The translations under genes and the position numbers were made by a program. From an uncultured Phycisphaeraceae bacterium (GTDB lineage: Bacteria; Planctomycetota; B15-G4; JADJEK01), in assembly GCA_964649825.1 (NCBI GenBank), contig CAZYQW010000086.1:21027-85026 (forward strand): DNA of 64,000 nt, given 5' to 3'. Under the pieces are notes generated by a model that worked only from the letters and a program-made list of their open reading frames with translations, made no database searches and was not told where the DNA came from. Shown here piece after piece: positions 8,228 through 60,864 of the stretch. Position 1 is the first letter of the stretch. Each line of letters starts with the position of its first letter.

Positions 8228-8392
8228 CGTGTCCGAGCGGGGATGTTCCTCGCTCGGATGGTCAGTGTCAAGCCCGCCGCCGGGATTGGGCCGAAACTTC
8301 TCGGAGTTTCCGGCTCGCACCCGGCGCGGGGACCGACGACGTGGCGACGCCGGACACGGCGGCCCTTCGACGGGCGCGAGCGGACGGACGAC

Positions 8393-23140: not shown

Positions 23141-23344
23141 GCCGCCGAGGCGGCGTATCATGGCGACCGCACCCACCGGCGCGGGGCGCGCGAGGAGTGG
23201 TGGTGCGATTCGCTCGGAAACCCGCGGTATCGTTGAAGCGGCATCGACGCTCGGCGCACGGGGCGGCGACGCCGACCGATCGCAACCGCCCCCGAGCCTC
23301 CCGATAGGCGCGCGCCGGAAGGCGGTCGGCGCGGCTATCATGCT

Positions 23345-26104: not shown

Positions 26105-27015
26105 GTCGTCGTCGAAGGCTCGTCTGGCTGGTCGGCGGCGCGGCCGGGTTGGCCGCCGTCTTCTTCGCCGCGCTTGCGTTCGTGATCGCGACGAACCACC
26201 TCCGCGGCGACGTCGCCGCGCCCGAGTCGCTCGTCACCGAGGGAGCGCGCGCCGGCGGCTTCGAGCGCGTGGAGTTCAAGACCGACGACGGCTTGACGTT
26301 GCGCGCCGACCTCATCGGCGACGCGCAGAAGCGCCCCGTCGTCCTGTTCGGCCACGGCTACCGCCACCGGCGACGTCAAGGCGACCCGCTCGCGCGAGCG
26401 CTCCTCCTGCGAGGCTACGCGGTGCTCCTGTTCGACTTCCGCGGAAGCGGAGCCAGCGACGGCCGTTACACCGGCGCCGGCGCGATCGAAGCGCCCGACG
26501 TCCGCGCGGCGATCCGCTTCCTTCACGGGGCGCGCGGCGTTCCGCTCGAACGGATCGCGTTTGTCGGCTACTCGATGGGCGCGGCGGCCGGCCTGCTCGC
26601 CGCCGACGCGCTCGCCGCGCTTCCCGCCGTCGTGCTGATCGCGCCTTACACGCGGCTCACGGAGACCTACGAAGCACGCACGCTTCGGTTCGGCCACCTG
26701 CCGCTCGACCCGTGGTTCGCGCCGTCCGTATCGATCCTCTCCTGGCTCCTCGACGTCGACGTCCGTTCGGTGCGCCCGATCGATGCCGCGAGCCGACTCG
26801 CCCGAACCAGCGTCCTTCTGATCGGAGCTCCCGACGACTGGCGAGCACCGGTGGACGGCCTGCGCGAGATCGCCGGGTGCGTCGGACCGACCGCGACGCT
26901 CGCCGTCGTCGCGACCGGCGGGCACTTCGACCTCGCCCGACTCGGCGACGACGTACAAGCGCTGACGATCCGCTTCCTCGATCACCACTTCACTCCACGT
27001 CCGATGAGCCGATGA
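26101..27015 (+). CDS. Alpha/beta-fold hydrolase (abhydrolase, dienelactone hydrolase/S9-like) with an N-terminal TM anchor.
   Basis: The proposed GTG start at 26101 overlaps the M50 stop. The nucleophile elbow reads GYSMGAAAG, preceded by VVLFGHGY. Confidence 0.7.
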   Translation: MSRRRRLVWLVGGAAGLAAVFFAALAFVIATNHLRGDVAAPESLVTEGARAGGFERVEFKTDDGLTLRADLIGDAQKRPVVLFGHGYRHRRRQGDPLARALLLRGYAVLLFDFRGSGASDGRYTGAGAIEAPDVRAAIRFLHGARGVPLERIAFVGYSMGAAAGLLAADALAALPAVVLIAPYTRLTETYEARTLRFGHLPLDPWFAPSVSILSWLLDVDVRSVRPIDAASRLARTSVLLIGAPDDWRAPVDGLREIAGCVGPTATLAVVATGGHFDLARLGDDVQALTIRFLDHHFTPRPMSR

Positions 27016-28835
27016 TCCTCGCCGCTCTCCTCACCAGCCAGGTTTTCGTCGCCCCGCTCGCCGCCGCGGAGCATCCGTGCGCGGAGTGCCACGCGGCGAT
27101 CGTGCAGACCTACGCGAACCACGGAATGGCGCGGGCGCTGTACGAGCTCGACGCGGGGACGGTCGACGCCGTCGCGGGTTCGGCGCGGCTCGATCCGAAG
27201 GGCGGCTACACGTACCGCGTCGAGCGGAGCGAATCGGGCGCGCGGCTGGTCGAGGAGAAGGCCGGGCCGGCCGGGTTCGACGACCACCGTTCGTCGCAGC
27301 GGATCCGCGCCGTCATCGGCCGCGGCCACTTCGACCGCTCGCTCGTCACCGAACACGAGGGGCGGCTCTTCTTCGCTCCGGTGGAATGGTCGACGACCGC
27401 CGGCCTCGTGCTCGCGCCCCATCAAGAGCTGACGCCGCACACGCGCCTCGGGCAGCCGGTCACCGGCGAGTGCCTCGCCTGCCACTCCGACTTCGAGCCG
27501 CCGTCGACCTACCCGTTGAATCTCGCGCCGGCCGCCCCGCTCGCCGGGATCGACTGCGCGGGCTGCCACGGCGACCCGTCGCGCCATCTCGAGGAGGCGG
27601 GCGAGCGCGGCACGATCACCCCCCTCGGCGCCCTTCCGCCGGAACGACAGCTCGACGTCTGCGCCAGGTGCCACCTGCAGGGCGACGCGCGCATCGATCT
27701 GCGCGGTCCCGGAGCCGAACGGTTCGCGCCCGGCGACGACTTGTTCGCGACGCGCGCTGCGTTCGTCCCACGGCGGCCCGGCGACGAGTTCGGGTTCGTG
27801 AGCGCCGTGGAACGGCTCGCGCTCTCGGCCTGCTTCACCGCGTCCGACGGTCGGCTCGCGTGCACCGTCTGCCACGACCCCCACGAGTCGGCGATCGGCA
27901 CCGCGGCGAAGATCGATCGAAGCTGCCTGGGCTGCCACGCCCCCGCCGACTGCGGACGCGAGCTCCGAGACGAGCGGGCCGATCGGAACGGCTGCGTCGA
28001 GTGCCACATGCGGAAGGCGGGTCCGTTCGACCTCCGACACGTCACGATCACCGATCACTTCATTCGGAAGCGTTTCGCCGCGCCGTCGTGGCCCGATGAG
28101 ATCCGCGTGCACGCTGCGGAGGACGGCGACCTCGTCCGGTTCCGCTGGCCCGGCGCGTCGAGCGATCCCCTCGAGGACGACGGCGCGCTGGCCATGGCGC
28201 TGATGCATCTGGGTCACGCCGGGCGAGCCATCGAGACGTTCGAGCGAGTCATCGACGCCGGCGTTCCCGATTCGCTGTCACGCTTGCCGCGCTTCCACTT
28301 CATGCTCGGCCGCGCCCTCGAGGCCGCGGGACGGCCCGCCGACGCGGAACGCGCGTACGAGACGACGCTGGGCCTCGCGCCTGGCGACCCCGAAGCATCC
28401 GTCAACCTCGGCCTCCTCCTCGCGTTGAAGGGGGACGAGCGGGCGCGCGCGGTGCTCGACGCAGTCACGACGTCGCATCCGCGGGCCGCCGCGCCGTGGC
28501 GCAACCTCGCGGTGCTCGCCTCGCGCCGGCGCGACGCGGATGAGTTCGAGCGGTCGATCACCGAGGCGCTGCGGCGAGACTCCGACCTTCCGTCGGTCTG
28601 GCTCCAGCTCGGCGGATTCCAGATCGACCGCCGCGACTACGCGGCGGCCGCGCACGCGCTGGAGGAAGCGCGGCGGCGCGATCCGGACCTCGCCGGGCTC
28701 TACTCACGCCTCGGCGTCGCCCGGTTCGAGACCGGCGACCGCCGCGGCGCGCGCCGCGCCTTCGAGGAGGCGCTGCGGCGCGATCCGGACGATCGGCTCG
28801 CGCGCGCGGGGCTCGCGCGGTCGGGCGGAGGATAG
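27012..28835 (+). CDS. Heptaheme c-type cytochrome fused to C-terminal TPR repeats.
   Basis: The ATG at 27012 overlaps the hydrolase stop. There are seven CxxCH motifs (CAECH, CLACH, CAGCH, CARCH, CTVCH, CLGCH, CVECH) and a signal peptide MILAALLTSQVFVAPLAAA. The C-terminal third is TPR-like. Confidence 0.75.
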   Translation: MILAALLTSQVFVAPLAAAEHPCAECHAAIVQTYANHGMARALYELDAGTVDAVAGSARLDPKGGYTYRVERSESGARLVEEKAGPAGFDDHRSSQRIRAVIGRGHFDRSLVTEHEGRLFFAPVEWSTTAGLVLAPHQELTPHTRLGQPVTGECLACHSDFEPPSTYPLNLAPAAPLAGIDCAGCHGDPSRHLEEAGERGTITPLGALPPERQLDVCARCHLQGDARIDLRGPGAERFAPGDDLFATRAAFVPRRPGDEFGFVSAVERLALSACFTASDGRLACTVCHDPHESAIGTAAKIDRSCLGCHAPADCGRELRDERADRNGCVECHMRKAGPFDLRHVTITDHFIRKRFAAPSWPDEIRVHAAEDGDLVRFRWPGASSDPLEDDGALAMALMHLGHAGRAIETFERVIDAGVPDSLSRLPRFHFMLGRALEAAGRPADAERAYETTLGLAPGDPEASVNLGLLLALKGDERARAVLDAVTTSHPRAAAPWRNLAVLASRRRDADEFERSITEALRRDSDLPSVWLQLGGFQIDRRDYAAAAHALEEARRRDPDLAGLYSRLGVARFETGDRRGARRAFEEALRRDPDDRLARAGLARSGGG

Positions 28836-28885: not shown

Positions 28886-31834
28886 TCAGCGGCGCGAGGC
28901 CTCGATCGACTCGAGCCGAGCGCGGAGCGCCGCGACCGACGCGTGGCCGGAGCCGAGCTCCGCGGCCCAGCGCTCGATGACCCCACGAAGCAGGTCGATC
29001 GCGTCGGCGTGTCGTTCGAGCTCGACGAGGGTCTCGGTGGCGCGGGCGATCGCGAACGCGGCCCGCCCGTCGTCCGCGCCGAAGGCGGATTCCAGTCGCC
29101 GCGCCGCTTCGCTCCACCGACGGACGGCTTCGTCGTGGTCGCCCTCTCGAACGAGGAGCTCGGCGATGGTCAGTTGGAGGATCGTGACCTGCGGATGATC
29201 GTCACTCAGCCGCGACCGTATCGCCTCGAACCCGTCCCGCAGATACTCCGCCGCCTCGGCCACCCTCCCGCGATACAGGATCACCCGCCCCAACGCGAAC
29301 CGCGCGACGGCGGTCGTCAGGTGGCCGTCGCCCAAGGTCTCGCGCGAGAGATCGACCACGTCGCGGTAGATGCGCTCTCCTTCTGCGAGCCGGCCGCCGA
29401 ACGAGATCGCGTCGCCGAGCTCCGACATGTGTCCGACGAGGGCCGGGTGACGGTCGCCGAGCTGCGCCGCGAGACGCGTGATCCCGTCCCGCAGGGTCGA
29501 CTCGGCCTGGTCGAAGCGCCCCGCGGCGAGATCGATCGCGCCGCGCATGAGGAGCCCCTCGACGACCTCCGCGTTGTCGGCGCCAAACGCCGCGGTCGCG
29601 GCCGCGAGAAACGCGTCGCAGCACGCCGCGGCTTCATCGAAGCGGCCCATGTCGCGGAGCAGCGCAGCCAACGTCTGGCGCGCGTCGAGCGCCAGCGGAT
29701 GTGTCTCGCCGTGCGCGGCGACGAGGGCGTCGGCCGCCAAGCGCAGCTCGATCAGGGCCGCGTCGTAGCGGCCCGCCTCTCGCAACGCCCGCGCGAGGGC
29801 GGCGCGCGCGGCGGCGACGTCGGGATGATGGGCGTCGAACCGGGCCGACACGACCGCGAGGTTCGACTCGAGCATCAAAACCGCCTCGTGCGGCCGCCCC
29901 TCCTTCAGACGGAGATTCGCGACGGACGACGCGACGGCCCGCGTGTGATAGTGCTCCGCACCGAGCCGGTTCACGAGCGTCGCATAGCAAGCACCGAGGA
30001 GAGCGTCCGCCTCCTCGATCCGTCCCTGCGCGACGAACGCGTCGCCCAGGAGCTTGTCGATCCACGAAGCCAATTCGGTCCCCGCCGCCGCCGGCCCGAT
30101 CGCCAGCAGCCGTCGCTCCGCCGCCCCCGCGTCCGAGCGCAGGAGGTCGAGGTGCGCCAGGTCGAACGCCACGTGCACGAACTCGTCCGGATCCGGCGCG
30201 CCGGCCGCGGCGTAGCCGGCCTCCGCACGGAGGAGCAGCGGTTCCGCTGCGTCGAGCCGCCCATCGCTCAACAAGGCCGCCCCGAGCCGCCGGCGGCACT
30301 CGTGCGTACGCGGATCGTCGTCGCCGTACGCGCCGATCGCAAGCTCGAGGGCCCGTCGCAGCTCGGGCTCCGCACGGTCGAACGCCCCGAGCGCGACGTA
30401 CGCGGCGCCGGCCGTTCCGTGCACGCGGATCGCCGCGGCCGGGGCGCCGGCGAACGCGGTCGGGATCATCGGCACCGCCCGGTTCAAGACGTCCTCGACG
30501 CGCGCGTCCCGCCCGAGGTCGTCGCCGTCGACCGAGAGGATCATGTCGTGGAGAAAGCGGCTCACGTCATCCGCCTCGCGCCGGGCCCGCTCGGCGAGGG
30601 CGGCCTGGCGACCCGCCTCGCGCGCGTGAGAAACGGCGAGGAAGAGCCCCACCAGCAGCGCGAGCAGCGTCGTGGCGGCTCCGACGACGAGCGCCCGATG
30701 CAGGGCGACGAACCGCGCCGCTCGTCGTTGCCACTCGAGCGGCCGGGCGGCGATCGGGTCGCCGGCCACGATGGCGCGCAGGTCGCGAGCGAGCTCGACG
30801 GCCGACGGATAGCGATCGTTCGGGTCCTTGCGCAGCGCCTTCTCGACCACCGTCTCGAGGTCGCCGGAGAACGCTCGGTCGACGTCGCCGAGGCGCGGCG
30901 CGTCCTCGTGCACGATCCGATGCAGCGCGTCGGAGAACCGTTCGGGATCGAGGGACAGCGGCGGCCGACCCGCGAGCAGCTCGAACAGCAGCACGCCGAG
31001 CGCGAACACGTCGCTTCGTGCGTCGACGTCGCCGGCGCGACCCGACGCCTGCTCGGGGCTCAGGTACGCGAGCGTGCCGAGGATCTGACCGGCCGACGTG
31101 AGCGTCGCGGTTCGCTCGGGTCGGAGGATCCTCGCCACGCCGAAATCGACGATACGTGGGTCTCCGCGCCGGTCGACGAGCACGTTCGATGGCTTCAGGT
31201 CGCGATGGACGACGCGCTGGACGTGGGCGTGGGCGACGCCCTCGGCCACCCGCCGCATCAAATCGAGGCGCGCCCGCACCTCGAGTCGGTTCTCCGCCAC
31301 GTGACGATCGAGCGGGAGACCGTCGACCTTCTCGAGCACGAGGAACGGGTGGAGGATCTCCCCGATCGGGGCGAACCCCGCGTGATGGATGCGCGCCACG
31401 AACGGATGATCGAGCCGCGCGAGCGCGTCCGCCTCGCGGCGAAATCGCTCGAGCACCGACGGGTCCATCGCCGGCGCGCGGAGGAGCTTCAGCGCCACCC
31501 GCCGCCGGGGCGTCTCCGACTCGACTTCGAAGACGGTGCTCGCGGCGCCATGCCCGAGGATCGAGACGACGCGGTAGCCCGCGATCGCCTCGGGCAATGC
31601 GTCGAGGGCAAAGTCCCCCGAGCCCTCGAGCACGCCGGTCCAGGCGCCCGCCGGCACCAACGTCGCGTCGAGCGGGCTCGCGACCCCATCTTCGGCCAGC
31701 AGCTTCCGCACCTCGTCGGCGAGCGCGGAATCGTCCTCCCGCAAGGCGGCGAACAGCCGCTCGCGCTCCGACGCCGGGAGCGCTGCCGCTCGGTCGAACA
31801 AGGCCCGGAGGCGGCGGGGTCGATCCAGCGTCAC
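28886..31834 (-). CDS. Ser/Thr protein kinase (Hanks type) with one TM helix and an extracytoplasmic TPR region.
   Basis: The proposed GTG start at 31834 overlaps the ECF sigma stop by 4 nt. The kinase motifs read VALKLL, VVHRDLKPSNVLV, DFGVAR and GTLAYLSPE. A TM segment (LVVGAATTLLALLVGLFLAV) is followed by about 550 aa of TPR-like repeats. Confidence 0.8.
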   Translation of the reverse strand: MTLDRPRRLRALFDRAAALPASERERLFAALREDDSALADEVRKLLAEDGVASPLDATLVPAGAWTGVLEGSGDFALDALPEAIAGYRVVSILGHGAASTVFEVESETPRRRVALKLLRAPAMDPSVLERFRREADALARLDHPFVARIHHAGFAPIGEILHPFLVLEKVDGLPLDRHVAENRLEVRARLDLMRRVAEGVAHAHVQRVVHRDLKPSNVLVDRRGDPRIVDFGVARILRPERTATLTSAGQILGTLAYLSPEQASGRAGDVDARSDVFALGVLLFELLAGRPPLSLDPERFSDALHRIVHEDAPRLGDVDRAFSGDLETVVEKALRKDPNDRYPSAVELARDLRAIVAGDPIAARPLEWQRRAARFVALHRALVVGAATTLLALLVGLFLAVSHAREAGRQAALAERARREADDVSRFLHDMILSVDGDDLGRDARVEDVLNRAVPMIPTAFAGAPAAAIRVHGTAGAAYVALGAFDRAEPELRRALELAIGAYGDDDPRTHECRRRLGAALLSDGRLDAAEPLLLRAEAGYAAAGAPDPDEFVHVAFDLAHLDLLRSDAGAAERRLLAIGPAAAGTELASWIDKLLGDAFVAQGRIEEADALLGACYATLVNRLGAEHYHTRAVASSVANLRLKEGRPHEAVLMLESNLAVVSARFDAHHPDVAAARAALARALREAGRYDAALIELRLAADALVAAHGETHPLALDARQTLAALLRDMGRFDEAAACCDAFLAAATAAFGADNAEVVEGLLMRGAIDLAAGRFDQAESTLRDGITRLAAQLGDRHPALVGHMSELGDAISFGGRLAEGERIYRDVVDLSRETLGDGHLTTAVARFALGRVILYRGRVAEAAEYLRDGFEAIRSRLSDDHPQVTILQLTIAELLVREGDHDEAVRRWSEAARRLESAFGADDGRAAFAIARATETLVELERHADAIDLLRGVIERWAAELGSGHASVAALRARLESIEASRR

Positions 31835-32367
31835 CGCACGCCCTCGGCGCCGAGCTCGCGTCCGAGCCACGCCCGCGCAAAGCGCCAGTCGAGATCGACG
31901 GTGCGCGGCGAGACGCGAAGGACGGCCGCCGTCTCGTCGACCGAGAGCCCACCGAACCATTTCAGCTCCACGACTCGGGCCGCGCGCTCGTGCTCGCGAC
32001 CCAGCCGGTCCAGCGCCTCGTCGAGGGCGAGGAGGTCGGCAGTCGACGTCTCGCGCGCGCCGTCCGCCGCCACGAACTCGAGGCGAACGCGATCACCGCC
32101 TCGCTTGGCCGCACCGCGCCGCCTTGCATGGTCCACGAGAACCTCGCGCAGCGTGCGCGCGGCCAGAGCCAGGAAGTCGCCCCGCGCGACCCAAGCCGCT
32201 TCATTGCGCCCGAGCAGCTTCAGGAACGCCTCGTGCACGAGCGCGGTCGACTGTAGGGTATGTCCGGGCCGCTCGCGCGCGAGCGCCCGACTCGCGAGAC
32301 CACGCAAGCACTCGTAGACGATCGGCGTCCACCACCGGGCGTCGGAGCGAGTCGAATCGTGAGACAT
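31831..32367 (-). CDS. ECF sigma factor of the Ser/Thr-kinase-associated type (Sigma70_ECF/PF07638-like).
   Basis: The 178-aa ORF reads LVHEAFLKLL (region 2) and has a C-terminal region-4 helix-turn-helix (LSVDETAAVLRVSPRTVDLDWRFARAWL). It is translationally coupled to the kinase gene. Confidence 0.7.
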   Translation of the reverse strand: MSHDSTRSDARWWTPIVYECLRGLASRALARERPGHTLQSTALVHEAFLKLLGRNEAAWVARGDFLALAARTLREVLVDHARRRGAAKRGGDRVRLEFVAADGARETSTADLLALDEALDRLGREHERAARVVELKWFGGLSVDETAAVLRVSPRTVDLDWRFARAWLGRELGAEGVR

Positions 32368-32545
32368 CGCCGCTCAGACTATCACGAGCGGTTCCTTTTC
32401 CGGCCTCCGCTCGTCGGGCGCCGCGAATTGGGCGTGACCCGCGAAGGAACCCGGGATTCCATTGCGTCGCCCCCCTGGTTTCATCGCTTCGAGCGACCAT
32501 CCGTCGCGTCGTCCTTACTGAATCGCTCGCCTAAAGGAGGCACCT

Positions 32546-34192
32546 GTGCATACACATCCATCCCTGGTCGCCGGATCGCTCTCGCTCGTCATCGCCGCGG
32601 TGGCCGCCGCCGGCGAATCGTTGCATTCGTACACCGGCATCTCGCCCGACTTCGGGGCGGTGACGGCGGGGATCGGCGACTTCGACGGCGACGGCCGGTC
32701 CGACTGGGCGATCACGTCGTATCACTCGGTCATCGTCTACTCGGGCGCGACCGCGGCGGGGCTGGCGGTCCTCACCGGCCTCCCGGGCGAGGGATTCGGA
32801 GCGGACATCGACGGGATCGGCGACGTGAATCTCGACGGGTTCGCGGATCTGGTCGTTGGTGCGCCGAACCACCTCGTCGACTTCGTGGAGGGGGGCGCCG
32901 CCTACGTCATCGCGGGGGGCACGGGTGCGACGCTTCGCGTGCACCTCGCCACGGAGGCCGACGAGTTCTACGGCCGGCGCGTGGCCGGCGCTGGCGACGT
33001 CGACGCCGACGGCTACGTCGATTACCTGATCGGGGCTCCCTACGCCGACGCGACCGTGGCGGGCTCCAACGAGGGGCGCGCCGAGCTTCGCTCGGGCAAG
33101 GACGGGACGAGCCTGAAGGTGTTCACCGGGACGCTCGGGGGGGTCTACGTCGGCTCCGACGTGACCGGCGTCGGCGACGTCGATCAGGACGGGCACGGCG
33201 ACTTCGCGATCTCCGCCAGCCGCGAGATCGACGCGTTCGGCCAGCGAGTCGGCGCAGTGCGGGTCTACTCCGGGGCGACCGGGACCGCGACCTGGACGCA
33301 GTACGGAACCGTCGTGAACGGAGCGTTCGGGACGGTCATCGATGGAGTCGGCGACGCGAACGGCGACGGCGTCCCCGACATCGTGGTGGGCGCTCCGTAC
33401 GCGAACGGATACCGGGGCTTCGCGCGCGTCCTCTCGGCCGGCAACGGCGCCATCCTCCACCACGTCGACGGAGACGGACCGAACGACCTGTTCGGCATCC
33501 GCGTGGCCGGCGCCGGCGACACGACCGGCGACGGCCGAGCGGAGTTCCTCGTCGCGGCCTCGGCGTTCCCGCTGCTGCCGCCGGTGGAGCCCGCCTACGC
33601 GCGCCTCTACTCCGGTGCGACCGGCCAGGTCGTGCGCCAGTTCGACGCGATGGACGACAACGAGCTGATCGGCGCCGGCGCGGATGGCGTGGGCGACGTC
33701 GACGGGGACGGACTCGCCGACGTGATCATCGGGCGGCCGCGCGTGCCGTTCTCCGGCGGCGACCCCGGCGCGGCGGACGTCCATCGGGGATGCCCGTCCG
33801 CCGTCGTCGCGTTCGGCGCGGGCTGCGCAGGGAGCGGCGGGTTCGTGCCGAAGCTCGCCCTCGACCATTGCATGTTCCCCGGCGGAACGACGACGTTGAC
33901 GATCGCGGACGGGCTCGGCGGATCGACCGCGCTCGTCTTCATCGGAGCGGGACAGTCCTCGGTGCCGCTCGGCGGGGGCTGCTCGTTCCTCGTGAGCGTG
34001 TTCCTCCCCGCGCCGGTCGCGCTCCTGCTGTCGCCGGGTGGCCCCGGCGCCGGCGGCGTCGCGGTTCCGATCTCGCTGCCGTCGCAGATCCTATCGTCGT
34101 GGCAGGCGTCGCTGCAGGCGTTCGTCATCGACGCGGCGTCGCCGATCGGCGTCGCGGCGACGAGCGGGCTCGCGGTCGCGTACGACGGGTAG
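32546..34192 (+). CDS. Secreted FG-GAP/VCBS beta-propeller repeat protein with a ~130-aa C-terminal module shared with the protein at 59074-60864.
   Basis: A GTG start is preceded by AAGGAGG. The signal peptide is followed by at least 7 repeats of DxDGDGxxDxxxGAP. The C-terminus reads GAGCAGSGGFVPKLALDHC... Confidence 0.7.
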   Translation: MHTHPSLVAGSLSLVIAAVAAAGESLHSYTGISPDFGAVTAGIGDFDGDGRSDWAITSYHSVIVYSGATAAGLAVLTGLPGEGFGADIDGIGDVNLDGFADLVVGAPNHLVDFVEGGAAYVIAGGTGATLRVHLATEADEFYGRRVAGAGDVDADGYVDYLIGAPYADATVAGSNEGRAELRSGKDGTSLKVFTGTLGGVYVGSDVTGVGDVDQDGHGDFAISASREIDAFGQRVGAVRVYSGATGTATWTQYGTVVNGAFGTVIDGVGDANGDGVPDIVVGAPYANGYRGFARVLSAGNGAILHHVDGDGPNDLFGIRVAGAGDTTGDGRAEFLVAASAFPLLPPVEPAYARLYSGATGQVVRQFDAMDDNELIGAGADGVGDVDGDGLADVIIGRPRVPFSGGDPGAADVHRGCPSAVVAFGAGCAGSGGFVPKLALDHCMFPGGTTTLTIADGLGGSTALVFIGAGQSSVPLGGGCSFLVSVFLPAPVALLLSPGGPGAGGVAVPISLPSQILSSWQASLQAFVIDAASPIGVAATSGLAVAYDG

Positions 34193-35777: not shown

Positions 35778-38636
35778 TCACGGCGCGTCGAGCACGCCGA
35801 GGAGCCGCCGCGCGCCGCGATGGTCGGGGTCGACCCGGAGCACCTGCTCGACCAGGGTCCTCGCGTGGCGGAGGGCGCCGTCGGCGACGGCGTCCTCCGC
35901 CACCGCCGTCCACGCGTCCAGGTCGTCCGGGTGCTCGGTTCGCCAGCGCCACGTCGCCTCGCGGCGAAGCCCGTCCGCTGGACAGACGCCGCGCACGAAA
36001 CGGAACGTCAACGGGGTCGGCGACGACGCGCGCAAGAGCTGCGCGCACGCGGCGGCGAGTCCGCCGTCCTCGTCGGTCGCGAGCCCCGCGGCGTGGACCA
36101 GGCTAACGTGCGCCAACGGAAAGACCGAGTCGCGCTGGGCGGCCACGAGGAACTCGCGGGCCGCCGCGGCCCGATCGCCGCTCCGGCTGCGACACCACGC
36201 GCGCACGAACGCCATCGTTCCGTCCTCGTTGCTCGCGACGACGCGGTCCAGCGCCGACAGCATCGACTCCCGCGCCTTCCCGAGCAGAAGGACCGAGAGG
36301 GCCGCCGCGGTCGTGTCCCTCCAGTCCCGCGCCACCGACGGCGGAATCCGGAAGAGCGCCTCGGCGAGGCCGTCCTCCATGCCCGCGCTGGCGGTCGCGG
36401 CGAGCCCCGCGAGCGGCACGGCGAGGCGCATCACCGCGTCGAGCTTGGACGGCTCCTCGCCCAACACGCGATGCATCGCCTGCTCCTCGATCACCCGCGA
36501 AGCCTCGGTCACGTTCGCGAGCACGCCGAGCAACGCCCGCAGGATCCCGAGGGCGGACTCGCTCACCCGCGGGTAAGCGTCGACCAGCGCGGCGAGGTTG
36601 CTTCCCTCGACCACGGCCCGGCACCCGAGCTCCACGAACTGCGCCGACGGATCATCCGGGTACAACCGGCGATACTCCCGCGCCGCCTGGAGCGCGCGGG
36701 ACGGATGACCGGTCAACAGCAGCGTCGGCGCGAACATCTCGTTCGCGCGCCGATGACGGGAGTCGGCGGCGAGCGCTCGCTCGAGGTGGAGCCTCGCGGA
36801 CGCGGCGTCGCTCGCGAGCAGGGCGGCCGCGTACTCGGCGTCCGCCGCGTCCAGCCCGCCGCACGCGACGGCGTCCGCGACGAGCTCGAGGTGTCGCGGC
36901 TCGGCCGCGCGCTCCAGGTGCTCCCGCGTATGATCGCCGCGCAGGAGCAGCGTCTTCGCGAGATGGGGTCCGAGCTCGGCCGCCGAGAACCCGGCCAGCT
37001 CATCGATCGCGGCGCGCGCCCGCGCCAGCGCGCCCGCGCCTTCCCACGCCTCGATCTCGGACACGCGGATCCCGATCTCGTCGGCGCAGCCCCGGGCCCG
37101 CGCCTCCGCGTACCGCGCGTGCGCTTCCTCCCAGCGCCCGTAGAGCGCCGCGCGCAGCCCGAGGTTGAAGCTCTCCTCGGCGCTCTTCTGCGCCAGCTCG
37201 TCCCGCGACAGGACCGCGTCCTGCTCGCGAGCCCGCGCGACGTTTCGCTCGCCGCGGATGGCGAAGAGCGCGACGATGACGAGGCCGGTGATCAACGCCA
37301 TCGAGACCGCGGCCGAGACCGCGAGGGGCCGGTTCCGGACCATCCACTTCCGCAGCTCCGCCCACGGGCCCTCCTCGTAGGCGGCGACGACCCGTTGCTC
37401 GAGGAACGCGCGCAGGTCCTCGAGCAGACTGGTCATGCTCGGGTACCGATCGTCCACCCTCCACGCCATCGCCCGTTCGCAGACCGCCACCAGCTCCGCG
37501 GGCGCGTTGCCGGCCTTCGTCGCGAGCGGCGTCGGCGGGCCGCGCCGGGCCAACGCCAGCACGTCGGCCGCCGTCCGAGATTCGCCGCCGTCCAGGTAGG
37601 GCGCGTGGCCCGCGAGCAGCTCGTACAGGATGGCCCCGAACGCGTAGACGTCGGTGGCGGGGCCGATCCGATCGAGGTCGCCCGCGGCCTGTTCCGGCGC
37701 CATGTACGGGGCCGTCCCGACCGCTTCCCCCGGGTCGGTCCGGAGCGGCGAGCCGCGCTCCTCGACCAGAGCGTCGGCCCGCGTCGAGGTGACGCCGGAC
37801 GATGCCGAAGGCGAGCCGTCGGACACGAGCCGCGCGAGGCCCCAGTCCACGACGTACGTCTCTCCGAAGCGCCCGACCATGACGTTCTCCGGTTTGAGGT
37901 CGCGGTGGATCACGCCACGAGAGTGCGCGAACGCGAGCGATTCTCCGGCGCGTAGAAGGACGCCGAGCACCCGGGCTCGATTCCAGCCCTCGACGCCGCT
38001 CCTCGTCTTCGCGAGGACCGCGCGCAGGTCCTCGCCGGAGACGAGCTTCATCGCGTAGAAGACCCGGCCGTCGCGCGTGCCGACGTCGTGGACCGGGACG
38101 ATTCCGGGGTGGTCGAGCTGCGCCGTGACCTGCGCCTCCTCGAGGAATCGCCCGAGGCGGCGTCCGTGCTCGACGTCGCCGGGACGCCCCATCTCGTCGC
38201 TCATCATCTTCAACGCGACGGCGCGCCGGAGGTCGACGTCGAACGCGTGGTACACCTCGCCCATGCCGCCTCGTCCGAGGACCCCGTCGAGCACGTACCG
38301 GGGCTCGCCCGCCGCTCGCGAGCGGACCCGTTCCAGGAGGGCCGCCCACGTCGATGGGTCGCTCGGGTCGCCCTCGACGACCACTCGTCCGGGTTCCCCC
38401 CCGGCCGGCGCGGGCGAGGACGGCGACAGAGCGTCCCACACCAGCCCTTCGTACGCTCCCCAACCCGTCGCCAGCTCGCGGAGCGCCTCGGCATGCTCCG
38501 GGTAGCGGGAGGCCACCGACTCGATCGATCCTTGCTCGCCGCGTTCCCGCGCGGCCAGGTACTCGAGGAACGCGTCCTCGAGCGACGCCCCGTCCGGTCG
38601 ATCACCACCCGAGGCTTCATCCGCTGAAGAACGCAC
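35778..38636 (-). CDS. Ser/Thr protein kinase with a TM helix and a large C-terminal helical/TPR-like region.
   Basis: The kinase motifs read VALKMM, VIHRDLKPENVMV, DWGLAR and GTAPYMAPE. The TM segment reads LAVSAAVSMALITGLVIVALFAI. The start is uncertain. A GTG at 38636 is preferred over ATG 38732, because the interval contains 11-bp tandem repeats that are unlikely to be coding. Confidence 0.75.
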   Translation of the reverse strand: MRSSADEASGGDRPDGASLEDAFLEYLAARERGEQGSIESVASRYPEHAEALRELATGWGAYEGLVWDALSPSSPAPAGGEPGRVVVEGDPSDPSTWAALLERVRSRAAGEPRYVLDGVLGRGGMGEVYHAFDVDLRRAVALKMMSDEMGRPGDVEHGRRLGRFLEEAQVTAQLDHPGIVPVHDVGTRDGRVFYAMKLVSGEDLRAVLAKTRSGVEGWNRARVLGVLLRAGESLAFAHSRGVIHRDLKPENVMVGRFGETYVVDWGLARLVSDGSPSASSGVTSTRADALVEERGSPLRTDPGEAVGTAPYMAPEQAAGDLDRIGPATDVYAFGAILYELLAGHAPYLDGGESRTAADVLALARRGPPTPLATKAGNAPAELVAVCERAMAWRVDDRYPSMTSLLEDLRAFLEQRVVAAYEEGPWAELRKWMVRNRPLAVSAAVSMALITGLVIVALFAIRGERNVARAREQDAVLSRDELAQKSAEESFNLGLRAALYGRWEEAHARYAEARARGCADEIGIRVSEIEAWEGAGALARARAAIDELAGFSAAELGPHLAKTLLLRGDHTREHLERAAEPRHLELVADAVACGGLDAADAEYAAALLASDAASARLHLERALAADSRHRRANEMFAPTLLLTGHPSRALQAAREYRRLYPDDPSAQFVELGCRAVVEGSNLAALVDAYPRVSESALGILRALLGVLANVTEASRVIEEQAMHRVLGEEPSKLDAVMRLAVPLAGLAATASAGMEDGLAEALFRIPPSVARDWRDTTAAALSVLLLGKARESMLSALDRVVASNEDGTMAFVRAWCRSRSGDRAAAAREFLVAAQRDSVFPLAHVSLVHAAGLATDEDGGLAAACAQLLRASSPTPLTFRFVRGVCPADGLRREATWRWRTEHPDDLDAWTAVAEDAVADGALRHARTLVEQVLRVDPDHRGARRLLGVLDAP

Positions 38637-38649
38637 GGGACCTCCTCCT

Positions 38650-38681
38650 CCGCTCGAGTTTCCGCTCGAGTTCCGCTCGGC
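38650..38681. repeat. Tandem 11-bp direct repeat (CCGCTCGAGTT x2 plus a partial copy) in the divergent region between the kinase and ECF sigma genes.
   Basis: The sequence was read directly as tCCGCTCGAGTTtCCGCTCGAGTTCCGCTCGG. The unit length is not a multiple of 3. Confidence 0.4.
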
Positions 38682-38872
38682 GTGCCGCCGCGAGCGACCG
38701 ACCCTCCGCCGAGAAACTCTGGCAGAATCCACGTCCGGTGCGCCGCGCCGCCACGTTCATTGGGGGCAGGACGCGTCCGACGGCTTCGAGACCGCGGAAA
38801 GGAGCGCGCGTGCCCGGCCAGGATCCTACCCCTTCACCCGCCGAGCGGCATGAAACCCCTTCTCGCGACCGC

Positions 38873-40789: not shown

Positions 40790-41227
40790 CTACGCGCGTC
40801 CCGCGAACTGCTCGACCCGCGCAACGTACCGCGGGAACAGATCGAGCGCGGAGCGAACCGAGTGGAGCACGATCTGGTCGTCGATGCGATCGTACTCGTG
40901 GACGAGTCGGTTGCGTAGGCCGGCGGACGGCGCGAGAGACCGCGCGAGGCTCTCGTCGAGCACTCCGATGCCGGCGAGTGCAATGAAGCTCGTGAAGAGA
41001 TCGTCGGGCGCGACCGCTCCGGAGGCAACCAACATGTGGGCATTCAGGTCGACCGCCGCGTCCACGATCTCCTGGAGCAGGCGCTCCGTCGCCTTGCGTC
41101 GATACACGTCCGCGGCGTACGCCTCGACGGAGAGCTCCTTCATCGGCTCGAGCAGGCGGAGGTTCTGCGTGATCCTCTCCAGCTTGCGAAGAACGATGTC
41201 CTGCTCCAGGGGAGACATCTCGCTCAT
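40790..41227 (-). CDS. HepT-like (DUF86) toxin of a HepT/MntA toxin-antitoxin pair.
   Basis: The C-terminal Rx4HxY motif reads RNRLVHEYDRID. The 145-aa ORF overlaps the upstream nucleotidyltransferase gene by 4 nt. Confidence 0.75.
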   Translation of the reverse strand: MSEMSPLEQDIVLRKLERITQNLRLLEPMKELSVEAYAADVYRRKATERLLQEIVDAAVDLNAHMLVASGAVAPDDLFTSFIALAGIGVLDESLARSLAPSAGLRNRLVHEYDRIDDQIVLHSVRSALDLFPRYVARVEQFAGRA

Positions 41228-41652
41228 GTCCGAGGCGCGGGGTCGAGCCCGCGATCGGCCAGGTACTTTCGAATCCCCCGATGACGCGACGCACGGAGCT
41301 TCGACGTGTCGTTGTACCGCCGGAGCGCGAGGCTCGCGAACGAGGCGAACGCTCCCGCCTCGGACTCGTGCAGCGCGATTCCGTAGCGGGCGATCGCCAT
41401 CGCCAGCAGCGGAGTCGTGCGGCGGACGTCGACCACGTCGACCCGCCCGCTTCCGAGTCGGTGCATGATCTCGGCCTCCAGCTCGGCGACGTCGCCGTCC
41501 ACGAGAACCGCGAGGTCGACGTCGCTGTCCGCCCGCGCCGTCCCCTTCGCGTGGGATCCGAACAAGACGATCAAGCCGACCTCGGGACGATCGAAGATCG
41601 GTGACAGACGACGCCGGATGTCGTCCTTGCTGATCGGAGGCTTCGTCGGCAT
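41224..41652 (-). CDS. MntA-like minimal nucleotidyltransferase antitoxin.
   Basis: The nucleotidyltransferase motif reads LFGSHAKGTARADSDVDLAVLV (GSx9-13DxD). Confidence 0.8.
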   Translation of the reverse strand: MPTKPPISKDDIRRRLSPIFDRPEVGLIVLFGSHAKGTARADSDVDLAVLVDGDVAELEAEIMHRLGSGRVDVVDVRRTTPLLAMAIARYGIALHESEAGAFASFASLALRRYNDTSKLRASRHRGIRKYLADRGLDPAPRT

Positions 41653-41811
41653 GGTGCGTCCGATGGTAGCTGGCGCGGGTCGTGGCGGGAAGTCTCGGGC
41701 GGCGGAGGGGACGGCGCGAGGCGGCCCAAGGCGTACGGAGTGCGGGCGCGGCCGGCGATCGGTCTCGCCGAACTCGACTCGGGACCGGCGCCGTTCGCGA
41801 AACGGCGACGC

Positions 41812-41823
41812 GGGGGGGGGGGG
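41812..41823. repeat. Homopolymeric G12 tract.
   Basis: It was read directly as cGGGGGGGGGGGGc, in ORF-poor DNA upstream of the TA pair. Confidence 0.6.
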
Positions 41824-56787: not shown

Positions 56788-58425
56788 ATGCTCGCACGAT
56801 CGATCGGTCTCGTCACGCTCGCCGGGCTCGGCGCGTGCGGAACGCTTGGAATCGGAGGAATGAACGACATCGACGCTCGCCTGGCCAAGTTCGCCCCCGT
56901 GCGCATCCAGGCCGACCTGTCCGATCTCCCCGCGTCGGAGCGGGAAGCGCTCGACCACCTCGTCGCGGCGGCCAAGCTGATGGAGCCGATCTTCCTCCGG
57001 CAGGCGTGGCACGAGAACCCGCGGCACGCGGAGACTCTCGACGGCCCGGCGCGCGAGCTGTTCTTCATCCACGCTGGTATCTGGGACCGCATCGACGAGG
57101 AGCCGTTCGTCGGATCGACGCCGCGGCCCGAGGTCGCCGGCTTCTACCCCGCCGACCTCACGCGCGAGGAGTTCGATGCGTACGTCGCGGCGCACCCGGA
57201 GCAAAAGGAGGCGCTGGAGAGCCTGTTCACGATCGTCGTGCGCGACGGCACGGGACTCCGCGCGATCCCCTACTCCGAGGCATTCGCCGAGTGGCTCGTG
57301 CCGGCCGCAGAGCACCTACGAGCCGCCGCGCGCGTCACCCGGAACGAGTCGCTGCGCCGCTTCGCCGACAGCCGCGCCGCCGCGTTCCTGTCCGACGACT
57401 ACTACCAGAGCGACGTGGACTGGATGGACCTCGACGGACTGGTCGAGATCACGATCGGGCCGTACGAGACGTACGAGGACCGTCTGTTCGGCTACAAGGC
57501 CGCGTTCGAGGCGTTCGTGACCGTGGCCGACAAGACGGAGAGCGCGCGGCTCGAGCTCTACAAGTCCGAGCTGCCGATGATGGAGCAGAACCTCCCGATC
57601 CCGGACTCGATGAAGAACCTGGATCGCGGCAGCGAGTCGCCGATCCGCGTGGTCGACGTCTACTACGCGTCGGGCGACACGCGCGCCGGCGTGCAGACGA
57701 TCGCGTTCAACCTGCCGAACGACGAGCGCGTGCGCGAGGCGAAGGGGAGCAAGAAGGTGCTCCTGCAGAACGTGATCGAGGCGAAGTACGGCGGGATCCT
57801 GCAGCCGATCGCCGTTGCGATGCTCGTGCCCGAGCAAATCGATCTCGTGACCGCGGACGCGTTCACGAACCAGACGCTCTTCCACGAGCTGTCGCACGGG
57901 CTCGGTCCAGGACGGATCGTGAAGGACGGCCGCGAGACCGAGGTGCGCCTCGAGCTGAAGGACCTCTATTCGCCGCTCGAGGAAGCGAAGGCCGACATCA
58001 TGGGCGTCTACAACCAGCTCCTGATGGTGGAGAAGGGCCTGATGCCCGCCTCGACCACGGAGACCCTCTACCCGACGTGGCTCGCCGGCCTGTTCCGCTC
58101 GATCCGTTTCGGCGTGGAGGAGGCGCACGGCAAGGCGAACATGATCCAGTTCAACTACATGCAGGACCACGGCGCGATCGCGCGCGACCCCACGACCGGC
58201 CGCTACCGGGTCGACTTCGACAAGTTCGCCGACGAGACGAGGAACCTGGTCCGCGACATCTGCGTGCTCCAGGCGAACGGCGACTACGACGGTACGCTCG
58301 AGTTCCTCCTCGAGTACGGCGAGATGGGCGACGAGCTGATGCGCGACCTGACGCGGCTCGAAGGGATTCCGGTCGACGTCCGCCCGATCTACGACCCCGA
58401 CGAGGCGATGGCCGGGCACGGATGA
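56788..58425 (+). CDS. DPP III-like (M49-related) zinc metallopeptidase lipoprotein with an HExxH-variant motif.
   Basis: A GGAGGA site precedes ATG 56788. The lipobox reads MLARSIGLVTLAGLGAC. The zinc motifs read TLFHELSHGLGP and EEAKADIMG, which resemble the M49 HExxGH/EECRAE pair. Confidence 0.6.
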   Translation: MLARSIGLVTLAGLGACGTLGIGGMNDIDARLAKFAPVRIQADLSDLPASEREALDHLVAAAKLMEPIFLRQAWHENPRHAETLDGPARELFFIHAGIWDRIDEEPFVGSTPRPEVAGFYPADLTREEFDAYVAAHPEQKEALESLFTIVVRDGTGLRAIPYSEAFAEWLVPAAEHLRAAARVTRNESLRRFADSRAAAFLSDDYYQSDVDWMDLDGLVEITIGPYETYEDRLFGYKAAFEAFVTVADKTESARLELYKSELPMMEQNLPIPDSMKNLDRGSESPIRVVDVYYASGDTRAGVQTIAFNLPNDERVREAKGSKKVLLQNVIEAKYGGILQPIAVAMLVPEQIDLVTADAFTNQTLFHELSHGLGPGRIVKDGRETEVRLELKDLYSPLEEAKADIMGVYNQLLMVEKGLMPASTTETLYPTWLAGLFRSIRFGVEEAHGKANMIQFNYMQDHGAIARDPTTGRYRVDFDKFADETRNLVRDICVLQANGDYDGTLEFLLEYGEMGDELMRDLTRLEGIPVDVRPIYDPDEAMAGHG

Positions 58426-59021
58426 CCGGCGGCGCGGGCCAGGATGACGTCGCGCGCGCGGTCGGCGGCGACGAGGCGGCGCTCTCGCGGCTGCTGCTGC
58501 GGCACGCCGTTCGGATCCGTCGCTCCATCACGATCGTCCTGCCTCCTCGGCTTCGCGCGCTCCTGTCCGAAGACGACGTCCTGCAGCAGACGTTCACCGA
58601 CGCGTTCCTCGACGTCGACCGGTTCACCGGCGCCGGCGAGGAGGCGTTCGCGGCCTGGCTCGCGCGCCTCGCTCGGAACAACCTGCAGGACGCGATCCGC
58701 GCGCTCGACGCCGTGAAGCGCGGCGGCAAGGAGGCGCCCCGCGCCGACGATGCGAATTCGTTCGAGACGTTGTTCGTGAACCTGCTCGCGCGTACTCGCA
58801 CCACGCCGAGCGGACACGCGGTGCGCGAGGAGATGATCGCGTCGATGCGGGACGCGATCGATCGCCTTCCCGCCGATCACGCTCGCGTCGTCCGGCTCTA
58901 CGACCTGGAATCGCGCCCGATCGCCGAGGTCGCGGCCGCCCTCGGACGGAGCGAGGGCGCGACGTTCCTGCTGCGCCACCGCGCGCATCGCCGGCTGCGG
59001 GACATGCTCGGGGGAGGGTGA
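58422..59021 (+). CDS. ECF sigma factor, Ser/Thr-kinase-associated type (third copy).
   Basis: The ATG overlaps the peptidase stop (ATGA). The ORF reads AVGGDEAALSRLLLRHAVRIRR, has a region 4 (LYDLESRPIAEVAAALGRSEGATFLL), and is similar to the two other ECF sigma copies in the window. Confidence 0.7.
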   Translation: MTGGAGQDDVARAVGGDEAALSRLLLRHAVRIRRSITIVLPPRLRALLSEDDVLQQTFTDAFLDVDRFTGAGEEAFAAWLARLARNNLQDAIRALDAVKRGGKEAPRADDANSFETLFVNLLARTRTTPSGHAVREEMIASMRDAIDRLPADHARVVRLYDLESRPIAEVAAALGRSEGATFLLRHRAHRRLRDMLGGG

Positions 59022-59073: not shown

Positions 59074-60864
59074 CTACGGGATCGTGATCCGCACGCCGTT
59101 CGTGTTCGAGAAGCCGAGCGGGATCGCGCCGGCGTCGATGATGAACGCCTGCATCGCCACCGAGACCGACAGGTTCAGCGCGACCGGGATCGCGCCCGGG
59201 ATCGACACCGCGCCGTTTCCGGCGCCGCTGCCGCCGAAGGTCAGCCCGATCGGGCCGGGGAGGAACGGGAACACGTTCGCCACGCAGCCGAACCCGATCT
59301 CGACCGACGCCGGCTGGAGCCCGAGGAAGAGGAGCCCCGTCGCGCCGCCGACCGCGTTCGTGACCGAGAGCGTCACCACCGATCCCTTGGTCGTGCAGCC
59401 GTCCAGGTCGAGCACCGGCACGAACCCGCCGGAGCCGACGCAGCCCGTTCCATAGGAAACCGTCTGGCTGCACTGGCGCTCGTGCGCCCCCATGTCGACG
59501 ACCGGCGCGATGCCGACGCCCGTGTCCGCCGCGTTCACCTCGTCGGAGAAGCGCGGCTGACCGCCCCCGTCGGTCGGCGTCGGCTCGAGCTGGTTCGCGT
59601 CGCCGTCGAGATCGAGCGCGTCCGCGGGAACCGCCGTCCCGTCGCCCGCGTCGACGCACGGCGAGAGCAGGCCCAGGCGCAGGTCGTCGTCGCCGGTCCC
59701 CACCACGTCGTCCGCGCCGTCCGCGTCGAGGAAGAGCGGGTCGAGCCCGACGTTCGTTCCGCCGAGCGCGCCGGTGAGCCCCTGGATGCAGGAGCGGTCG
59801 ACGACGCTCGGCTCCGGGCCGAGCTGGATCTGCGCCGCCTCGCTCAGGACGCCGGACGTCGAGTTCCCCCACAGGATCGAGTTGGTGAGCTGCGTCGCCA
59901 CCCGGAGGAACACGTTGTCCGCGAGCAGGCCGCCCGCCTTCGCGGTCGACACGTTGCCGGCGAAGGTGCAGAGCGCGACGGACAGCGCGACGGGCGCCGT
60001 GAACGAGTCGCCGATGACGTACGCGCCGCCGCCGCCGTCGACCGCGGAGTTGCCGCTGAACCGGCAGTTCACGAGGGTGGCGTCGCCGACCGCGCAGAGC
60101 CCGCCGCCGAGGCCGGTCGAGTGGTTGCCGGCGAACGAGCAGCCCGCGAGGGTGACGTCGCCCGCGTAGAGACCGCCGCCAAGCGCGCCGCCGGCGCTCG
60201 CCCCGGCCCGGTTCTGCTCGAACGCGCAGTAGATCAACGCCGGCGTGCCGGCGCCGACGGCCGCCATGCCGCCTCCGATCGCGCCGAACCCGTCGCCGAC
60301 GAGGTTGTCGCGCACGCGGCAGTTGCGAAGCACGGGGCTCGACGAGACCGAACGAACCCCCGCCCCTTCGTTCGGCGCGGCGTCGTCGTGCCCGCCGCGG
60401 ATCGAGAACCCGTCGAGGGTCGTGGCGCTTCCCGCCGCGCTGAACGTCACCACGTTCAGGCTGTTGTCGCCGCGGTTCGCGAACGCGGGCCCGTCGTCGC
60501 CGGAGAGGTCGCCGGACAGGATCGTCTGATCGAACAGCCCGGCGCGCTGCGCGAGCGTCGCCTCGACGCCGGAGAAGCCGCCGAAGACGGCGACGCCGTC
60601 CGGGATGAGGAACGTCGCGGAACGATCGAGCGGAGTCCGACCGCCGCCGGCGTCCGGCCGATAGGTCCCCGCCGCGACCCACACTTCGTCGCCCGCCGCC
60701 ACCACGGAGAGCGCGTCCTGCAGCGCGGTGAACGCGTCGGTCCACGACGTCCCGTCGTTCGCCCCCATCGCGGAGTCGTCGACGAAGTGGGTCGCGGCGC
60801 CGACCGCGCCGGTCGCGAGGCTGAGGACGAGGACGGCGAGGACGCACGAGCGCCGGTGTCGCAT
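59074..60864 (-). CDS. Secreted right-handed parallel beta-helix repeat protein with a C-terminal module shared with the FG-GAP protein.
   Basis: The ORF starts at ATG 60864. The signal peptide reads MRHRRSCVLAVLVLSLATGAVGAA. Repeated segments such as NxxxGGGxxxxGxxxLxxCxFxGN are typical of pectate-lyase-like beta-helices. The C-terminus reads GTGCVGSGGFVPVLDLDGC... Confidence 0.65.
   Translation of the reverse strand: MRHRRSCVLAVLVLSLATGAVGAATHFVDDSAMGANDGTSWTDAFTALQDALSVVAAGDEVWVAAGTYRPDAGGGRTPLDRSATFLIPDGVAVFGGFSGVEATLAQRAGLFDQTILSGDLSGDDGPAFANRGDNSLNVVTFSAAGSATTLDGFSIRGGHDDAAPNEGAGVRSVSSSPVLRNCRVRDNLVGDGFGAIGGGMAAVGAGTPALIYCAFEQNRAGASAGGALGGGLYAGDVTLAGCSFAGNHSTGLGGGLCAVGDATLVNCRFSGNSAVDGGGGAYVIGDSFTAPVALSVALCTFAGNVSTAKAGGLLADNVFLRVATQLTNSILWGNSTSGVLSEAAQIQLGPEPSVVDRSCIQGLTGALGGTNVGLDPLFLDADGADDVVGTGDDDLRLGLLSPCVDAGDGTAVPADALDLDGDANQLEPTPTDGGGQPRFSDEVNAADTGVGIAPVVDMGAHERQCSQTVSYGTGCVGSGGFVPVLDLDGCTTKGSVVTLSVTNAVGGATGLLFLGLQPASVEIGFGCVANVFPFLPGPIGLTFGGSGAGNGAVSIPGAIPVALNLSVSVAMQAFIIDAGAIPLGFSNTNGVRITIP

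Follow-up and report, generated by a model that had tools for sequence, protein, structure and literature searches.

Why should two secreted proteins that have nothing else in common end in the same domain? The question is raised by a stretch of 64,000 nucleotides from an uncultured Phycisphaeraceae bacterium of the Planctomycetota (contig CAZYQW010000086.1), the whole of which is called the window here. The window encodes an FG-GAP beta-propeller protein (gene A) and, 25 kb away on the opposite strand, a right-handed beta-helix protein (gene B). An earlier note on this DNA had suggested that the two share a C-terminal module. The module, called CTD1 after its position as a C-terminal domain (CTD), belongs to a very large family of terminal domains on exported proteins, and there is about an even chance that it is a lineage-specific sorting or surface-retention domain.

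Evidence for a common module can be found by comparing the two proteins directly. Residues 413-544 of A and 487-618 of B (in the numbering of a 621-residue version of B) align with 42% identity, 61% positives and 2 gaps, at an E value of 2e-25 in BLASTP with composition-based statistics. The aligned region makes up the last ~133 residues of each protein, and BLASTP aligns no other part of the two. A tblastn search of the window finds exactly two copies (Table 1), with none further below E 0.1. Both copies carry every motif of the family consensus given below.

The size of the family was determined with a profile of 21 sequences, searched exhaustively against 1.84 billion cluster representatives. 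It matched 7,870 of them at E<=1e-3, 2,507 at E<=1e-10 and 241 at E<=1e-30. The similarity of A and B is thus not one of Gly-rich low complexity that disappears in a profile search. A word-indexed homologue search with profiles of 2 and of 72 sequences returned just 19-22 short proteins, all named 'hypothetical protein'.

From 164 members the consensus is C.G....YG.GCaGsGGfvP.L...GCp..G....l.i..gLGGs.A.l..Gl.qa..P.g.GC.Llv.P.lp....lpL.G.GpG.G........P........t.Qafv.Dpg.p.G...tNG. CTD1 can accordingly be defined as a domain of ~133 residues with the pattern C-x-G-x4-YGxGCxGSGGFxP...GC...LGG...GC...GxGxGxG...Q-x4-D...NG, present in single copy and ending <=4 residues from the C-terminus. Conservation across these members extends to four Cys positions, to the YGxGCxGSGGFxP loop, and to Q111 and D116, two non-structural residues that reach 99%. 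Both C15 and C67 are present in 158 of the 164 proteins and both are missing in the other 6. Because the two are kept or lost together, a C15-C67 disulfide and an extracytoplasmic location would fit. CTD1 is probably stabilized by two disulfides. In every one of 14 full-length homologues of gene A, conservation is higher in CTD1 than in the propeller, by 2-13 percentage points.

AlphaFold modelling, which the earlier note had proposed as a check, gave a confident all-beta model of ten strands for the isolated domain (AlphaFold2; mean predicted local distance difference test, pLDDT, 93.3; predicted template modelling score, pTM, 0.87). The predicted fold can be assigned with confidence to the immunoglobulin (Ig)-like beta-sandwiches.

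Could the likeness of the two C-termini nevertheless be due to chance or composition? The window has a GC content of 70.8% and CTD1 is rich in Gly, and translation of a genome of ~71% GC could yield Gly- and Ala-rich proteins that resemble one another. Against this, the E value of the pairwise alignment persists with composition correction, thousands of representatives are still matched at the E<=1e-10 level, one pair of Cys residues co-varies, and the domain is modelled with high pLDDT. In addition, GC at third codon positions is 0.91-0.94 in both genes, which indicates that both frames are coding. Chance similarity has practically no probability left and is excluded. The claim of a common module with conserved Cys positions on an FG-GAP and a beta-helix protein was therefore borne out.

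None of the catalogues searched contains CTD1, very large though the family is. At E<=10 the isolated domain was matched by nothing in Pfam (2025 copy; 21 CTDs), NCBIfam (June 2026; 3 CTDs) or a sequence profile search of PDB, and no Pfam or NCBIfam family lay over CTD1 when whole proteins A and B were searched. The possibility that the module would turn out to be a known carbohydrate-binding domain, also raised in the earlier note, found no support, as no curated carbohydrate-binding module (CBM) or other domain was matched. The models searched took in every CBM family of Pfam as well as those for PEP-CTERM and LPXTG. No paper describing CTD1 was found in the literature searched, and a preprint on the Saltatorellota mentions neither C-terminal domains, nor secretion, nor FG-GAP.

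The position of CTD1 in its carriers is highly regular. Each of the 164 proteins examined has exactly one full CTD1, with an envelope that ends 0-2 residues from the C-terminus; of the 7,870 profile hits, the best 150 were inspected. Further copies come from a pattern scan that took one genome from each GTDB species and gave 110 confirmed matches, of which 80 were kept and 79 genomic loci analysed. In a six-frame search of these loci, all 98 full copies end 0-4 residues before a stop codon. The domain is single and terminal in 262 of 262 inspected copies.

Most carriers are predicted to be exported, and they are very diverse. With a simple heuristic based on hydrophobicity, an N-terminus like that of a signal peptide was recognized in 88% of the full-length representatives (105 of 119). 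Among the passengers, which were compared for 95 carriers, 64 Pfam families are found, none of which covers the CTD; they include three FG-GAP families, DUF4394, DUF6923, Beta_helix, Kelch, WD40, PQQ_2, LDL-receptor YWTD and others. The earlier proposal, made from two genes, of a portable C-terminal domain on secreted proteins is now supported by 164 proteins and those 64 families, with a strictly terminal position, Sec export and passengers that are unrelated to one another.

Passenger and domain are joined closely. A comparison of junctions across the family found no conserved linker, motif or cleavage site upstream of CTD1, and the first conserved Cys lies within a few residues of the last strand of the passenger. 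In the full-length AlphaFold2 model of gene A (pLDDT 89.2, pTM 0.85), the propeller occupies residues ~25-413 and the sandwich 418-546. The junction is predicted to have no low-confidence linker, the blocks covering residues 401-420 having pLDDT values of 81-88.

Several known systems place a common element at the C-terminus of many proteins. Transmembrane-type sorting signals (PEP-CTERM/exosortase, LPXTG/sortase and GlyGly-CTERM/rhombosortase) resemble CTD1 in being C-terminal tags across many exported proteins of one lineage. They are signals of ~25 residues with a hydrophobic helix and a basic tail, whereas CTD1 is a globular domain of 133 residues that has neither. The PEP motif and LPxT[GA] each occur in 0 of 164 CTD1 tails, and PF07589 and TIGR02595 are also unmatched. 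No Lys or Arg is found in the last 8 residues of 122 of the 164 proteins; the last residue is Phe in one of them, and most end in P, Q or E. CTD1 does not resemble an outer-membrane beta-signal, which calls for an aromatic last residue and a barrel fold, since a terminal Phe is rare and CTD1 is modelled as a sandwich. On these tail counts, both the transmembrane-type signals and the outer-membrane beta-signal are excluded.

The type IX secretion system (T9SS) offers a different comparison. Its CTD is a C-terminal Ig-like sandwich of 60-100 residues and 7 strands that acts as an outer-membrane export signal (PMC4804311). It is preceded by a flexible linker and cleaved by PorU. The system has been described as confined to Bacteroidetes (PMC4804311, PMC10515386). 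This CTD (PF18962 / TIGR04183 for type A, TIGR04131 for type B) is like CTD1 in several ways: it forms the very end of Sec-exported proteins whose passengers are unrelated, is found on many cargoes per genome, and is restricted to a lineage; the fold predicted for CTD1 is likewise an Ig-like sandwich. CTD1 differs in having about 133 residues, 10 strands and two probable disulfides, in its lack of a flexible linker in the gene A model, and in its hosts, which are Planctomycetota and not Bacteroidota. Por_Secre_tail (PF18962), TIGR04183 and TIGR04131 were unmatched at E<=10 by 21 CTD1s in Pfam or 3 in NCBIfam, and none of the T9SS machinery (Sov/SprA, PorV, PorU, GldKLMN) was seen in the CTD1 neighbourhoods examined. 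By these likenesses the T9SS CTD appears to be the closest functional analogue of CTD1, which is not filed as a member of the T9SS family. Pfam, NCBIfam and tail-motif tests together support, at the level of sequence, the earlier view that the module is not PEP-CTERM, LPXTG or a typical T9SS CTD.

Structural comparison brings in two further parallels. The gene A model aligns with integrin alpha headpieces (alpha V, alpha 5 and alpha 4) at Foldseek E values of ~1e-20, the best being 8e-21, over about 600-650 alignment columns against chains of about 590 residues. In both, an Ig-like sandwich (the 'thigh' in integrin) comes straight after a seven-bladed FG-GAP propeller, to which it is rigidly joined. 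Gene A stops after the sandwich and has no calf domains, transmembrane helix or beta subunit, and in other carriers CTD1 stands behind beta-helices and some 60 further families. CTD1 alone does not retrieve integrin thigh domains, and the likeness is an architectural analogy for FG-GAP carriers only.

The top Foldseek hits of CTD1 in PDB are MD-2-related lipid-recognition (ML) domains (MD-2, NPC2, Der p 2, GM2 activator), with probabilities of 0.95-0.99, E>=2.9e-3 and TM-scores of 0.36-0.46. These are disulfide-containing beta-sandwiches of similar size, about 130-160 residues; the ML family PF02221 gave no Pfam match to CTD1. If CTD1 had an ML-like lipid-binding cup, this would offer a mechanism for anchoring to membranes. 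Dockerin and pre-peptidase C-terminal (PPC) modules are likewise terminal on many secreted proteins; dockerin docks on a cell-surface scaffold and PPC assists secretion. They differ from CTD1 in fold and size, CTD1 has no Pfam match to them, and no cohesin-like partner has been identified.

Among the possible roles, a lineage-specific sorting or surface-retention domain is ranked first because of the strict single-copy terminal rule, the export signals, the diversity of passengers, the many paralogues and the restriction to one lineage. In this mechanism, CTD1 proteins would be exported by Sec and would then fold in the oxidizing periplasm. One common partner would recognize CTD1; it could belong to an export apparatus of the outer membrane or be a fixed part of the cell envelope, and recognition would deliver and/or hold varied ligand-binding passengers at the cell surface, such as FG-GAP, Kelch, WD40, DUF4394 and DUF6923 propellers and beta-helices. 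We infer the surface localization, the existence of a partner and the fate of CTD1, whether retention or cleavage. Since the junction is short and has neither flexible linker nor cleavage motif, and since the full-length model is rigid, a retained anchoring or docking domain is favoured over a cleaved leader of the T9SS type.

A number of observations weigh against a sorting or retention role. A sorting tag could lie at the terminus, but so could a module for docking or for ligand binding, and position by itself does not tell them apart; internal or tandem copies are possible among members more distant than the 150 hits inspected. The signal-peptide call rests on a heuristic and not on SignalP. 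CTD1 is larger than T9SS CTDs in both length and strand number, its rigid junction is unlike that of cleaved export signals, and Gly and Pro, for which a structural role is probable, make up most of its invariant positions. An all-against-all clustering of neighbours at the 79 loci found no gene for a partner or machinery; the clusters were of abundant families, such as sulfatase-like proteins and kinases, along with a few small ones.

An alternative is a CBM-like or lectin-like module, which would bind an external substrate, a prey surface or a matrix and give many proteins a common specificity. The conserved polar residues Q111, D116 and N127-G128 could form a binding site, and a rigid junction with no obvious cleavage would suit such a module. 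Yet no curated CBM or lectin family was matched at E<=10 in Pfam or NCBIfam, and the passengers are mostly propellers and beta-helices, binding scaffolds themselves and not enzymes in need of a targeting module. CBMs are commonly internal, N-terminal or in tandem, and ordinary binding modules also occur internally and in tandem, whereas CTD1 is single and terminal in every copy inspected. A binding role is possible, though rather unlikely. The same terminal position, together with the Ig-like sandwich, the conserved last strands, the many cargoes per genome and the unrelated passengers, recalls T9SS and could mean that CTD1 is an export signal in the T9SS sense, recognized by a dedicated translocon and removed by a sortase-like protease, possibly with covalent linkage of the passenger to a surface glycolipid. 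This is distinctly unlikely, as the T9SS families are unmatched, no flexible linker precedes the domain, the neighbourhoods of the 79 loci contain no candidate protease or translocon, and the hosts are Planctomycetota, while T9SS is described from Bacteroidetes only (PMC4804311, PMC10515386).

The integrin-like architecture of gene A (best Foldseek E 8e-21) and its rigid predicted junction would also suit a purely structural accessory with no targeting role, whether a stalk like the integrin thigh, an oligomerization domain, or a folding or stabilizing cap like PPC. A stalk would connect to nothing, however, since no transmembrane helix or lipid anchor follows CTD1, and the occurrence of CTD1 after beta-helices and many other folds means that it is not a propeller-specific cap. 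An accessory of this kind is very improbable.

The sorting or retention role can be extended to a more specific proposal, which is held tentatively. CTD1 may mark the cargo of an undescribed sorting or surface-display pathway in Planctomycetota of the Saltatorellus/Engelhardtia type. This would be an independently evolved counterpart of the T9SS CTD, with its own outer-membrane receptor or anchor, serving thousands of propeller and beta-helix surface proteins; a second domain, CTD2, would perhaps mark a second class of cargo, comparable to types A and B in T9SS.

CTD2 is a different domain that ends exactly at the stop codon, in genes adjoining CTD1 genes (Table 1). Its consensus is ...GKxYxxLGSaSGTsPGxxLxGxxLPLNxDxY...NP...GxLDxxGxAxAxFxLPP...HAxxVxD...SNxxxVxLLP, and it has no NCBIfam match. 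Signs of homology between the two domains are weak: hhalign gives a probability of 18.6%, confined to the final 46 columns, and a single cross-hit (P0010, 2e-5) is itself weak. CTD2 could be a sister cargo class of CTD1.

Table 1. Features of the window, and CTD2 genes at related loci (numbered within each locus).
Feature	Coordinates	Strand	Description	Basis
Gene A	32546..34192	+	548-residue exported protein: signal peptide, seven-bladed FG-GAP beta-propeller, CTD1	Open reading frame, Pfam, AlphaFold2 model
Predicted Sec signal peptide, gene A	32546..32611	+	Residues 1-22, MHTHPSLVAGSLSLVIAAVAAA	Hydrophobic N-terminus by eye
CTD1 copy A	33782..34189	+	Residues 413-548; ends 2 residues before stop codon	BLASTP, tblastn, AlphaFold2, family profile
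Gene B	59074..60864	-	596-residue exported protein: signal peptide (MRHRRSCVLAVLVLSLATGAVGA), right-handed beta-helix, CTD1	Pfam, identity to P0024
CTD1 copy B	59077..59481	-	Residues 462-596 of the 596-residue product; ends at stop codon	BLASTP, tblastn
Extracytoplasmic function (ECF) sigma gene (context only)	31831-32367	-	Divergent from gene A	PF07638, E 4.4e-46
Ser/Thr kinase-TPR gene (context only)	28886-31960	-	Beside the ECF sigma gene, divergent from gene A	Pkinase, E 3.7e-41; TPR_12
ECF-type sigma factor gene (context only)	58422..59021	+	Convergent with gene B	Sigma70_r2, Sigma70_r4, Sigma70_ECF
Ser/Thr kinase-WD40 gene (context only)	from 61026	+	Other flank of gene B	Pkinase, WD40
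CTD2 gene, L046	1837-2934	-
CTD2 gene, L048	2-316	-
CTD2 gene, L074	3434-6082	+
CTD2 gene, L079	3317-4852	+

Gene A starts with GTG at 32546, 7 nucleotides downstream of an AAGGAGG Shine-Dalgarno sequence (a strong ribosome-binding site, 32532-32545). In the full-length model, pLDDT falls below 50 nowhere but in the first 22 residues, which are disordered, and the cleavage site of the putative signal peptide is a prediction from sequence. By inspection, the N-termini of genes A and B contain no lipobox Cys. FG-GAP (PF01839) matches gene A in 7 stretches at E 9.5e-26, and the passenger is integrin-alpha-like in that Pfam, the model and Foldseek all point to seven FG-GAP repeats forming a beta-propeller. 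The sequence GGAAC-N14-CGTC at 32446-32468 lies in the 178-bp divergent region common to gene A and the neighbouring ECF sigma gene; by resemblance only, it is reminiscent of an ECF-type promoter.

For gene B, the coordinates in the earlier note, 59074-60864, are right. The 596-residue product that starts at the ATG at 60864 (MRHRRSCVLAV) is identical to P0024, which was called independently on a Logan contig, and the 621-residue open reading frame is a mere upstream GTG extension of it. The exhaustive profile search places the domain of P0024 at 463-595 (E 1.5e-39), and Pfam matches Beta_helix, DUF1565 and Chlam_PMP (the PMP repeat) in gene B.

Not all members of the family carry large passengers. 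Five minimal members (P0002, P0008, P0009, P0011 and P0012), of about 210 residues each, begin with a signal peptide, continue with a Gly-rich motif that occurs twice (GGGFxLxW... / GGxFxLDGGFWPGVC) and end in CTD1. Apart from a sub-threshold hit to the CPR-pilus protein PamT, the motif has no family match. Two other CTD1 proteins that look 'short', P0001 and P0015, each overlap a passenger gene upstream of them at its 3' end (DUF7948 at L081 8086-10528, FG-GAP_2 at L083 9078-10477). Each pair is probably a single gene split by a frameshift in an assembly of low coverage, and some of the stand-alone CTD1 proteins in databases would therefore be artefacts.

Nearly all of the 80 kept matches come from metagenome-assembled genomes named 'Planctomycetota bacterium', together with the cultured Engelhardtia mirabilis Pla133. 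The GC content of all CTD1 loci is 63-75%. Single genomes can hold many CTD1 loci, with at least 16, 12, 11 and 9 in four metagenome-assembled genomes. At roughly one locus in five, 2-3 CTD1 genes occur in tandem within about 6 kb (L005, L009, L012, L018, L020, L022, L023, L029, L045, L048, L051, L057, L072, L074 and others), which suggests local duplication or domain shuffling of cargo genes. Engelhardtia falls within the Saltatorellus clade, whose genomes have ~70% GC and are rich in Ser/Thr kinases with WD40 or TPR arrays (PMC11032199). The Saltatorellus/Engelhardtia lineage is noted for its shape-shifting cells.

The window itself contains three large Ser/Thr kinase genes in 64 kb (28886-31960(-), 35778-38756(-) and 61026-63998(+)), one with TPR and one with a WD40 propeller. 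These kinases and the two ECF sigma factors are consistent with the kinase expansion of the Saltatorellus clade, and suggest a planctomycete of this kind as the source of the window. Both window genes do have ECF and kinase neighbours, as the earlier note observed. As a family trait the linkage was rejected: with up to 3 kb of flank counted on each side at the 79 related loci, an ECF sigma factor like that beside gene A was found at one locus and a kinase at three. A further example outside the window is L083, where a Ser/Thr kinase-TPR gene lies directly upstream of an FG-GAP_2 and CTD1 gene. Because the clade has expanded its kinases, the adjacency is best treated as coincidence or as a local regulon and not as a property of the domain.

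Genes of known sorting systems were also seen near CTD1 genes. A gene for exosortase EpsH lies 3.7 kb from one CTD1 gene (L082 10854-11654), and a rhomboid-family protease gene adjoins another (L081 11426-12340). Each was seen near a CTD1 gene once, and both were judged coincidental; they show that other sorting systems coexist in CTD1 genomes.

The remaining content of the window includes two paralogous proteins of ~700 residues, at 8192-10321(+) and 23237-25264(+), each with about six CarboxypepD_reg (transthyretin-like) repeats and without CTD1. An open reading frame at 40793-42166(-) carries a HepT-like ribonuclease domain at its C-terminus and may extend too far at the 5' end, and a gene at 26712-28832(+) encodes a cytochrome c7-like motif and TPR repeats. 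These last two are ordinary chromosomal content, and both are unrelated to CTD1.

In earlier cases (T9SS CTD, PEP-CTERM, LPXTG), recognition of a portable C-terminal sorting domain opened the way to a machine dedicated to secretion or anchoring, and such domains allow the surface proteome to be predicted from sequence. No sorting or anchoring domain of the type that CTD1 would represent is known to have been described in Planctomycetota. CTD1 comprises at least 7,870 sequence clusters without an entry in Pfam, NCBIfam or PDB, is tag-like by its position, and occurs in a deep-branching, little understood planctomycete lineage. If it were only a binding module, it would still be a large new domain family worth curating. 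If its function as a tag is true, CTD1 would define a surface or secreted proteome made up mostly of integrin-like propellers and adhesin-like beta-helices, would provide a handle on the machinery through phylogenetic profiling, and could serve as a display tag for the cultured Engelhardtia mirabilis Pla133.

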